Source of the DNA: a virus
Taxonomy: Duplodnaviria; Heunggongvirae; Uroviricota; Caudoviricetes
Strand: one strand, 5' to 3'
Virus record (IMG/VR): IMGVR_UViG_2695420847_000014
DNA: 9,360 nt
Shown here: piece by piece, positions 4,070 through 4,465 of the stretch
Layout: every line of letters starts with the position of its first letter
How positions within the stretch are numbered: the first letter of the stretch is position 1
Position numbers and translations under genes: made by a program
Notes under the pieces: model-generated
What the model was told of the DNA's origin: nothing
Database searches by the model: none
Seen by the model: the letters and a program-made list of their open reading frames with translations, nothing else

Positions 4070-4465
4070 GTGGGATTAAAGAAAATCGTTATGTTGACTT
4101 TTTGGGTCGGTTTTGTTGCGGGATGCACACCTTTACACCCTTCAGATTGCCACAAAACTACTGCTACAGGTAGTTGCAGTTCAGGACGCTGGGATGATCA
4201 GGATGAATGGGGGGCGCAAGCGCGGGGAATCAGAGCTGCAATTAATGCCAAACTTGATGAGCCGCATAACTGGAAAGGGAAAAAATGCAGGTTGCATATG
4301 GAATTCTCTCAGGATGGCACGGCGTTAAAAATATCTACCAGTAACGGTGATAAAGCCTATTGCGAAGCGATAAAGTCCGCAGCTCATAAAGCCAAATTTC
4401 CGGCCTTCAACAATCCGGAAGTCTACAGAGATTTTCAGAAATCTGGCTTTGACATGCGAGGTTAG
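4070..4465 (+). CDS. Outer-membrane lipoprotein, diverged paralog with TolA domain III-like fold
   Basis: GTG start with SD GAGGAG 7 nt upstream; signal peptide MGLKKIVMLTFWVGFVAG|C (lipobox VAGC, Thr at +2). The C-terminal domain (IRAAINAKL...GKKCRLHMEFSQDGTALKIS...GDKAYCEAIKSAA...FPAFNNPEVYRDFQKSGFD) keeps the same motif spacing and Cys pair as the upstream gene and TolA-III, at roughly 30% identity, plus an extra N-terminal Cys pair (C27, C36). Confidence 0.75.
   Translation: MGLKKIVMLTFWVGFVAGCTPLHPSDCHKTTATGSCSSGRWDDQDEWGAQARGIRAAINAKLDEPHNWKGKKCRLHMEFSQDGTALKISTSNGDKAYCEAIKSAAHKAKFPAFNNPEVYRDFQKSGFDMRG

Follow-up and report, generated by a model that had tools for sequence, protein, structure and literature searches.

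Two TolA-III lipoprotein genes of separate descent stand side by side in the late region of a lambdoid prophage

The stretch of DNA analysed here, a 9,360-nucleotide (nt) window from the IMG/VR virus record IMGVR_UViG_2695420847_000014, is 9.36 kb of the late region of a lambdoid (Qin/mEp460-like) Escherichia coli prophage. Its genes run in the order DUF968 gene, rusA, Q-type antiterminator, terminator-like site, two tRNA genes and small accessory open reading frames (ORFs), and continue with two lipoprotein genes, holin, lysozyme, Rz/Rz1 and the small and large terminase genes. The two lipoprotein genes, both on the + strand, are the subject of this report: gene 1 (3491..3919) encodes 142 amino acids (aa) and gene 2 (4070..4465) encodes 131 aa. 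A preliminary description of gene 2, made from the letters of the sequence, had taken it for a tandem duplicate of gene 1 that diverged in an arms race. We are highly confident of a different account, in which the two genes encode proteins with the fold of TolA domain III (TolA-III), have independent origins and are under purifying selection.

The gene 2 ORF was confirmed. It starts with GTG at 4070, 6 nt after the Shine–Dalgarno sequence GAGGAG (4058..4063, + strand); in the gene 2 copies of plasmids and chromosomes, this region (translated IEEQ) is conserved as well. We favoured GTG 4070 over the start chosen by the RefSeq annotation pipeline PGAP, ATG 4091, because the latter gives a signal peptide that lacks a charged n-region. 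Annotated starts vary in both directions: the RefSeq start trims the charged beginning of the signal peptide (locus L002, with the two genes at 6360-6620 and 6792-7166), and plasmid and chromosomal copies are often given an upstream-extended start (MVLRSIW..., MLKWTERQ...) that runs through the ribosome-binding site. The protein begins with a signal peptide (residues 1-18, MGLKKIVMLTFWVGFVAG-C19) that ends in the lipobox VAGC (FVAG-C19), followed by Cys27 and Cys36. Residues 19-48 form a conserved, disulfide-type Cys27-x8-Cys36 module, and residues 44-131 form TolA domain III, with the disulfide pair Cys73/Cys98 and the C-terminal strand GFDMRG. The cysteines and the SGFDMRG terminus had been read correctly in the preliminary description, as had the identity of about 30% to the gene 1 product, which BLASTP put at 29%. 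Within the module, SSGRWDDQDEWG (residues 37-48, window 4178-4213) is a conserved acidic stretch that contains Trp. We considered it as a mimic of the colicin TolB box, DG(S/T)GWSSE..W (PMC2821528), and rejected this candidate: the likeness is loose, the essential Asp and the Trp spacing are unmatched and the resemblance may be due to chance.

Both proteins carry a lipobox of the form [LVI][ASTVI][GAS]C, the Cys of which is at least 90% conserved in alignments. At position +2 both have Thr, and members of the family in general have Ala, Ser or Thr. Because neither protein has Asp at +2, the classical inner-membrane retention signal, both are predicted to be sorted to the outer membrane, where they would be anchored facing the periplasm.

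Profile and structure comparisons agreed on the C-terminal domain. Against Pfam PF06519 (TolA C-terminal; curated cut-off, 25 bits), gene 2 scored 54.6 bits and gene 1 scored 82.6 bits. Full-length TolA models were matched only from about position 265 (TIGR02794) or 293 (NF007065) to their C-terminal end, that is, over the last ~90 positions, and the NF007065 scores of 107.8 bits for gene 1 and 53.7 bits for gene 2 lie below its equivalog cut-off of 213. Neither protein has the architecture of an authentic TolA; at 142 and 131 aa, each opens with a lipoprotein signal. An AlphaFold2 model of gene 2, with a predicted local distance difference test (pLDDT) score above 90 for residues 44-131, superposed on E. 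coli TolA-III (3QDP) with a target template modelling (TM) score of 0.92 and a root-mean-square deviation (rmsd) of 1.1 Å over 86 columns. The top Foldseek matches of the model were 3QDP, 2X9A_B, 3QDR and 1TOL (target TM 0.85-0.92, rmsd 1.1-1.2 Å). The TolA-III cysteine pair (C363/C388 in E. coli) corresponds to C73/C98 in gene 2 and C84/C109 in gene 1, in invariant columns. The view that both genes encode TolA-III-like lipoproteins is therefore upheld. It had been suggested that a missing fold or routine decay to a pseudogene would speak against gene 2; the fold is present, and gene 2, like gene 1, is intact in 80/80 IMG/VR loci, as well as in hundreds of genomes. Among the shared motifs that had been listed, GK.C.L.M and PEVY..FQ are exact, but 'GD..C.A' is really GD-x3-C, a small slip.

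Gene 1 resembles TolA more closely. Its lipobox, IIGC (IIIG-C20), supplies the lipid-anchor residue Cys20 and is followed by a variable linker rich in Ser, Thr and Tyr (residues 21-53, pLDDT ~45) and by TolA domain III (residues 54-142, model pLDDT above 93), which ends in LDFKP, the same as TolA. PGAP labels the gene 'tolA, incomplete, missing N-terminus' and treats it as a pseudogene. Recent capture of E. coli tolA was rejected as its source: by blastn with a word size of 11, there was no nucleotide match between gene 1 and chromosomal tolA, given that 898/5426 genomes matched and prophage-free genomes gave no match to their chromosomal tolA. The gene 1 family is narrow: E. coli and Shigella account for all of its 46 clusters. 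The protein closely mimics enterobacterial TolA-III, and its gene is confined to E. coli and Shigella prophages.

In favour of a duplication, the two genes are adjacent, lie on the same strand, both combine a lipoprotein signal with TolA-III and align with 29% identity over 141 columns (BLASTP, E = 2e-18), far above chance. The strong divergence of gene 2 from gene 1 noted earlier is real. However, the two genes are not each other's closest relatives. When the 88-residue TolA-III domains are compared, gene 1 shares 59% identity with E. coli TolA, whereas gene 2 shares 31% with TolA and 29% with gene 1, so that gene 1 is closer to the host TolA than to its neighbour. We built a neighbour-joining tree of 56 TolA-III domains from authentic TolAs and many short lipoproteins, the latter drawn from a search of 1.8 billion representatives. 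With 300 bootstrap replicates, the gene 1 family was supported at 99% and gene 2 with its nearest relatives at 81%, and a sister grouping of gene 1 and gene 2 appeared in 0/300 trees. Each gene also occurs alone. Variants of gene 1 with 93% and 81% nucleotide identity are found by themselves at the same slot in other lambdoid prophages, with Q and the tRNAs upstream and the lysis genes downstream, and the stop codon of gene 1 marks the exact end of the homology between the window and these prophages. The homology to all other gene 2 copies is limited to 4033/4040-4468, that is, the gene and its ribosome-binding site. The junction between the two modules (3920..4039, + strand) has no homology to gene-1-only prophages, gene-2-bearing plasmids or chromosomes. 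Because the lineages differ, the genes occur separately and the homology borders coincide with gene borders, we conclude that the cassette was assembled from two modules.

We also asked how selection has acted on the pair, using pairwise Nei–Gojobori (NG86) ratios of non-synonymous to synonymous substitution rates (dN/dS). When gene 2 was compared with plasmid, Enterobacter and Citrobacter copies, dN/dS within its family was 0.07-0.17 at dS values of 0.5-1.1, and gene 1 compared with its variants gave 0.26-0.33. Gene 2 is thus the slowly evolving member of the pair and is under strong purifying selection; the elevated non-synonymous rate that an arms race in the diverged copy would imply was not seen. 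Column entropies from 92 representatives of the gene 2 family, a sample picked by the terminal motif and the first Cys motif and so slightly biased towards conservation at those few positions, averaged 0.95 bits in the signal peptide, 0.15 bits in residues 19-48 (CxPLHPSxCHKTTATGxCSSGRWDDQDEWG), 0.06 bits in the C-terminal strand β3, 0.32 bits in the whole TolA-III domain and 0.42 bits in strand β2. The segment with the Cys pair and β3 are therefore the most conserved parts of the protein. Cys27 and Cys36 had been described as an addition to the linker of this copy. They belong to a near-invariant module of the whole gene 2 family, and because relatives with as little as 32% identity (P0179 and P0209) have the same Cys-x8-Cys spacing, the pair is an old, constrained feature of one clade.

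The distribution of the two genes is consistent with separate histories. The 1.4-kb stretch that holds both recurs with at least 99% identity in 784 E. coli complete-genome records and in phage mEp460_ev081, and the prophage with the cassette is present in ~14% of complete E. coli genomes. Gene 1 was found in 898/5426 and gene 2 in 1269/5426 complete E. coli genomes, nearly always at full length. Among deposited phage genomes, gene 1 and gene 2 were found in just 1 of 50,697. The gene 2 family comprises 370 clusters, with identities of about 78-99%, whose sources are E. coli, Shigella, Citrobacter, Enterobacter, Serratia, Klebsiella and Raoultella, to which a scan of one genome per species added Leclercia, Kluyvera, Buttiauxella, Yokenella, Pantoea and Rouxiella. 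E. coli itself has two gene 2 alleles, a prophage allele that accounts for nearly all of 826 chromosomal places and a plasmid allele, ~88% identical to it, at 536 plasmid places. Two irregularities of the cassette were noted in passing: an IS1 inside the 1.4-kb region of one E. coli genome (NZ_AP027850.1, hit H1), an example of occasional insertions, and a gene 1–gene 2 spacing ~1.2 kb longer than usual in one of the IMG/VR loci (L016-L095).

On IncK/Z/I-γ (I-complex) plasmids, gene 2 occurs alone, 68 nt after the relaxase gene nikB and on the same strand. On pO157 of the Sakai strain (AB011549.2; L099 3716-6188), a gene 2 homolog lies directly after a truncated nikB, with psiB-psiA-hok and insertion sequence (IS) elements as neighbours; because of this position, we regard it as a relic of an I-complex nikAB-linked segment in an IncF virulence plasmid. 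In Enterobacter kobei and Citrobacter amalonaticus, gene 2 lies amid ordinary chromosomal genes with no phage genes nearby. We considered vertical, syntenic inheritance of these copies and rejected it, as the Enterobacter and Citrobacter neighbours are mostly absent beside the gene in 33 species representatives (L100-L132). Only a few of these orthologs adjoin a glutathione-peroxidase gene. Because neighbourhoods differ between genera, gene 2 appears to move by itself, which suggests a mobile single-gene cassette that has no obvious mobility gene.

To judge what the two domains could bind, we compared them with the known ligand surfaces of TolA-III. The phage protein g3p-N1, colicin N and the N terminus of TolB each add a strand to β3 (A415-K420), g3p also touches helix α1 (G334-E349), and colicin A adds to β2 (L375-P380) and stacks on K368, K379 and K396 (PMC3365938, PMC4339652, PMC7391070). 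The TolB-contact residues Y352/V407 were set aside, as their numbering is at odds with that in other papers. Gene 1 keeps 11/16 residues of the E. coli α1 and 5/7 of β3, including the LDFKP end, together with K379 and K396, and has K368H; it looks like a faithful mimic of the E. coli TolA tip. Gene 2 keeps 4/16 residues of α1 and 1/7 of β3, has all three lysines replaced (K368E, K379S and K396H) and ends in GFDMRG, with no proline. In its β3, the equivalent of D418 is kept and the changes L417F, F419M and K420R are conservative, so this strand may still be competent for strand addition, with different side chains. As the ligand surfaces differ in this way, the earlier suggestion that the two proteins have different targets or partners is plausible, and gene 1 and gene 2 probably have different ligands.

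The cassette sits between Q and the lysis genes. The Q-like late antiterminator gene (1273..2094, + strand), which places the cassette in a late operon, is followed by a terminator-like site (2175-2194) and by two phage-borne tRNA genes on the + strand (2238-2313 and 2417-2493). One of these has the anticodon CAT and is called Met by ARAGORN and Ile in RefSeq, its product presumably being modified with lysidine; the other is Arg-TCT. The two tRNAs read codons seldom used in E. coli, a typical trait of lambdoid and Stx-type late regions. A 117-aa ORF (2604-2957, + strand) that lies between these tRNA genes and the TolA-III cassette matches the function-unknown family phrog_2873 (231 bits) and is a further uncharacterised moron. 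A 43-aa DUF3927 ORF (2993-3124, + strand) just upstream of the pair matches phrog_1470 (E = 1.5e-11), which is labelled 'TciB-like inhibition of cell division or resistance to colicin'; on this homology annotation alone, its presence is suggestive of a second, possibly colicin-related moron. A strong match to the STnc100 small RNA family (3190-3380, + strand; Rfam RF02076; 110 bits, gathering score 47) lies directly upstream of the gene 1 promoter-like site, and a segment of ~95 nt (window 3152-3247) has five related copies in a Stx-phage-like locus (L008).

The cassette itself begins with a σ70 promoter-like site, TTGAGC-18-TATAAT (3432..3461, + strand; 10/12 consensus matches), the putative cassette promoter, and ends with a hairpin and T-run resembling an intrinsic terminator (4591..4608, + strand) between gene 2 and the holin gene. 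Downstream of this hairpin is the lysis cassette (4717..5893, + strand), which starts with an EssD-like holin gene and continues, on the same strand, with the lysozyme gene (4932-5429) and the Rz/Rz1-like genes (5414-5893 and 5646-5852). With promoter-like and terminator-like sites of its own, seen as consensus matches, and a position between Q and holin, the pair has the layout of a prophage moron; related prophages hold different cargo, or gene 1 alone, at the same slot.

More distant relatives extend the picture to bacteriocin plasmids. A translated search of plasmids returned ~690 further plasmids, mostly from Klebsiella, with more distant TolA-III genes. On CloDF13-like Klebsiella plasmids of 10-12 kb, a TolA-III gene with a lipobox (PF06519, 85.8 bits) overlaps by 4 nt a TonB_C gene, which encodes a secreted TonB C-terminal domain with a Sec signal (PF03544, 42.5 bits). 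This pair adjoins genes for a cloacin-like tRNase bacteriocin and its immunity and lysis proteins. It was located at 6127-6860 and 1400-2133 of two ColRNAI plasmids (L096 and L097, respectively), and the plasmids that bear it are mobilizable and occur in many Klebsiella pneumoniae isolates. TolA and 'TolB family' genes on a cloacin plasmid have been listed without comment (PMC10269471).

To explain why such proteins are maintained, we tentatively propose a reading whose chances we place slightly below even: gene 1 and gene 2, as lipid-anchored copies of TolA-III that were acquired independently and joined in one moron, act as decoys against Tol-dependent invaders. The decoy mechanism, as it can be pictured from the sequences, has in our estimate not quite an even prospect of being correct. 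The tethered domains would be shown at the inner face of the outer membrane, unlinked to the TolQR motor, because they lack domains I and II and so could not be energised by TolQR. They would present β3 and α1, the surfaces sought by g3p-N1, colicin N and the TolB N terminus, and β2, sought by colicin A, and would capture or compete for molecules that seek TolA, namely the translocation domains of group A bacteriocins and the g3p of filamentous phages. The TolB N terminus may be an alternative captured epitope, which would likewise stall Tol-dependent import. Stalled import would leave the lysogen or plasmid host tolerant, and the different surfaces of the two proteins would engage different ligands. 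Uncoupled tips of both import machines on a bacteriocin plasmid are what a decoy model predicts, and the Klebsiella pair supports it in this respect. A wider generalization, which we hold to be somewhat unlikely, is that short TolA-III lipoproteins and the secreted TonB-C proteins paired with some of them on bacteriocin plasmids form a widespread, unrecognised mobile class of 'import-machine decoys'. As dominant-negative versions of the Tol and Ton tips that occur in nature, carried on prophages and on conjugative and bacteriocin plasmids, they would confer broad tolerance of bacteriocins that depend on Tol or Ton, as well as of filamentous phages that are pilus-specific; gene 1 and gene 2 would then cover different sets of invaders.

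Several observations weigh against the decoy proposal. In gene 2, all three colicin A lysines and most of the g3p surface on α1 are lost, so that a direct copy of the ligand specificity of E. coli TolA is unlikely, and its N-terminal module is modelled at a pLDDT of ~50, which is uninformative. The matching PHROGs family, PHROG 5772, is listed as 'unknown function', the PADLOC defence-system models gave no match for the cassette proteins, and full-text literature searches turned up no described function of, or experiment on, these lipoproteins. The promoter and terminator are putative, being consensus matches only. The chromosomal gene 2 copies of other genera sit amid housekeeping-type genes. 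Finally, strong purifying selection and an invariant gene 2 β3 fit a conserved host partner, such as the TolB N terminus, at least as well as diverse invaders.

This last point leads to a serious alternative, which we nevertheless judge unlikely, namely that the proteins modulate the Tol–Pal system. A tethered TolA-III would bind the conserved host TolB N terminus, or Pal, and so alter Tol–Pal cycling. In the phage, the outer membrane would thereby be loosened, or vesiculation increased, at a late stage, as an accessory to lysis or release; on plasmids and chromosomes, the effect would be to tune the envelope, for example around a conjugation channel. Such a role would suit a cassette that lies in a Q-dependent late operon directly upstream of the holin gene, a gene 2 family with low dN/dS in which β3, the strand that binds the TolB N terminus (PMC7391070), is invariant, and the placement of gene 2 after nikB in the transfer-origin operon of I-complex plasmids. 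It accords less well with the retention of the gene at non-phage chromosomal and plasmid sites, where lysis is irrelevant, with the cassette's own promoter-like and terminator-like sites, which suggest expression in the lysogen, and with the bacteriocin-plasmid link, in which the TonB_C partner points to import machines generally.

The plasmid setting raises a further possibility, that gene 2 is an accessory of conjugation or DNA uptake that serves I-complex transfer, for example by docking to the envelope, and that the prophage copy is incidental. The fixed spot 68 nt from nikB on IncK/Z/I-γ plasmids and the nikB link retained on pO157 are in keeping with this idea. We consider it improbable, as the gene is kept on the non-mobilizable pO157 beside a truncated nikB, in the prophage of ~14% of complete E. 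coli genomes and in the chromosomes of other genera, and tblastn found no close homolog (more than 80% identity) on plasmids outside this lineage. Even less probable is that both genes are functionless relics, with gene 1 as a tolA fragment and gene 2 as an ORF that hitch-hikes. The PGAP label of gene 1 and a minority of frameshifted database entries would be expected of relics, but both genes have complete signal peptides, lipoboxes and ribosome-binding sites and dN/dS below 0.35, they are present in 898 and 1269 of the 5426 genomes and intact in all 80 viral contigs, and gene 1 has no nucleotide-level match to chromosomal tolA. Origin of gene 2 by tandem duplication of gene 1 in this prophage, with rapid arms-race divergence, is essentially excluded and the least probable of all, given the absence of any sister grouping, the separate occurrence of each gene with homology ending at its own borders, the 78-89% identity of gene 2 across many genera at low dN/dS and a Cys pair common to distant relatives.

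The domain and the fold are already known. Databases also list the proteins, though with no more than generic labels ('TolA C-terminal domain-containing') or, at the extreme, the label of a tolA pseudogene. Three features appear to have gone undescribed in the searchable literature: the existence of distinct families of TolA-III proteins that are lipid-anchored and mobile, the conserved Cys-x8-Cys module of the gene 2 family, and the spread of these genes over a prophage, I-complex plasmids, pO157 and bacteriocin plasmids. Carriage is substantial, with gene 1 in about one-sixth and gene 2 in about one-quarter of complete E. coli genomes, including O157:H7 (on pO157) and I-complex resistance plasmids. 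The case also corrects an evolutionary reading, in that adjacent, similar prophage genes need not be a duplication. If the two proteins are decoys, they would represent a new natural mechanism of bacteriocin tolerance and of exclusion of filamentous phages, could account in part for the colicin insensitivity that is widespread in wild E. coli and would be relevant to bacteriocin- and phage-based therapeutics and to strategies that use plasmid-dependent phages against resistance plasmids.

Among known systems, one parallel is the Klebsiella pair (WP_001237044 / WP_072354022), which likewise consists of two uncharacterised tandem genes on a mobile element, one of them for a short TolA-III protein with a lipobox. 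Unlike in the window, the partner there is a TonB C-terminal domain and not a second TolA-III, the TolA-III protein has only ~27% identity to gene 2 and no Cys-x8-Cys module, and the pair lies beside a bacteriocin operon rather than in a prophage late region. TolA-III of the host (PF06519; E. coli TolA ~334-421; 1S62, 3QDP, 1TOL and 2X9A) has the same fold of three strands and three helices as gene 1 and gene 2, with an equivalent disulfide pair, and gene 1 keeps most of its α1 and β3. By contrast with TolA, however, neither protein has domain I, with its membrane anchor and TolQR-coupling motif, or the long helical domain II; both are replaced by a lipoprotein signal, which would tether the domain to the opposite membrane in a form that could not be energised. 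Gene 2 departs further from TolA-III through its extra conserved module and its altered side chains in α1, β2 and β3.

Phage and plasmid lipoproteins that block routes of entry are well known: Llp of T5 and Cor of phi80 and N15 act on FhuA, and TraT is encoded by F. They are thought to shield the carrier cell from incoming phages and colicins. They share small size, a lipid anchor and coding by accessory genes of mobile elements with the products of gene 1 and gene 2, for which the outer membrane is likewise the predicted site, but they inactivate an outer-membrane receptor and are not copies of a host periplasmic co-receptor domain, and searches of Pfam, PHROGs and PADLOC revealed no kinship in sequence or fold. 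A closer functional precedent may come from the laboratory. Levengood-Freyermuth et al. are said to have reported in J Bacteriol in 1993 that overproduction of TolA's C-terminal domain in the periplasm makes E. coli colicin tolerant and leaky, and analogous dominant-negative work exists for C-terminal fragments of TonB. In both cases, an uncoupled periplasmic domain competes with the energised protein, as we propose for gene 1 and gene 2. The laboratory fragments are artificial, soluble and given at high dose, whereas the proteins described here, known to us from their sequences, are natural, lipid-anchored, conserved and carried by mobile elements.

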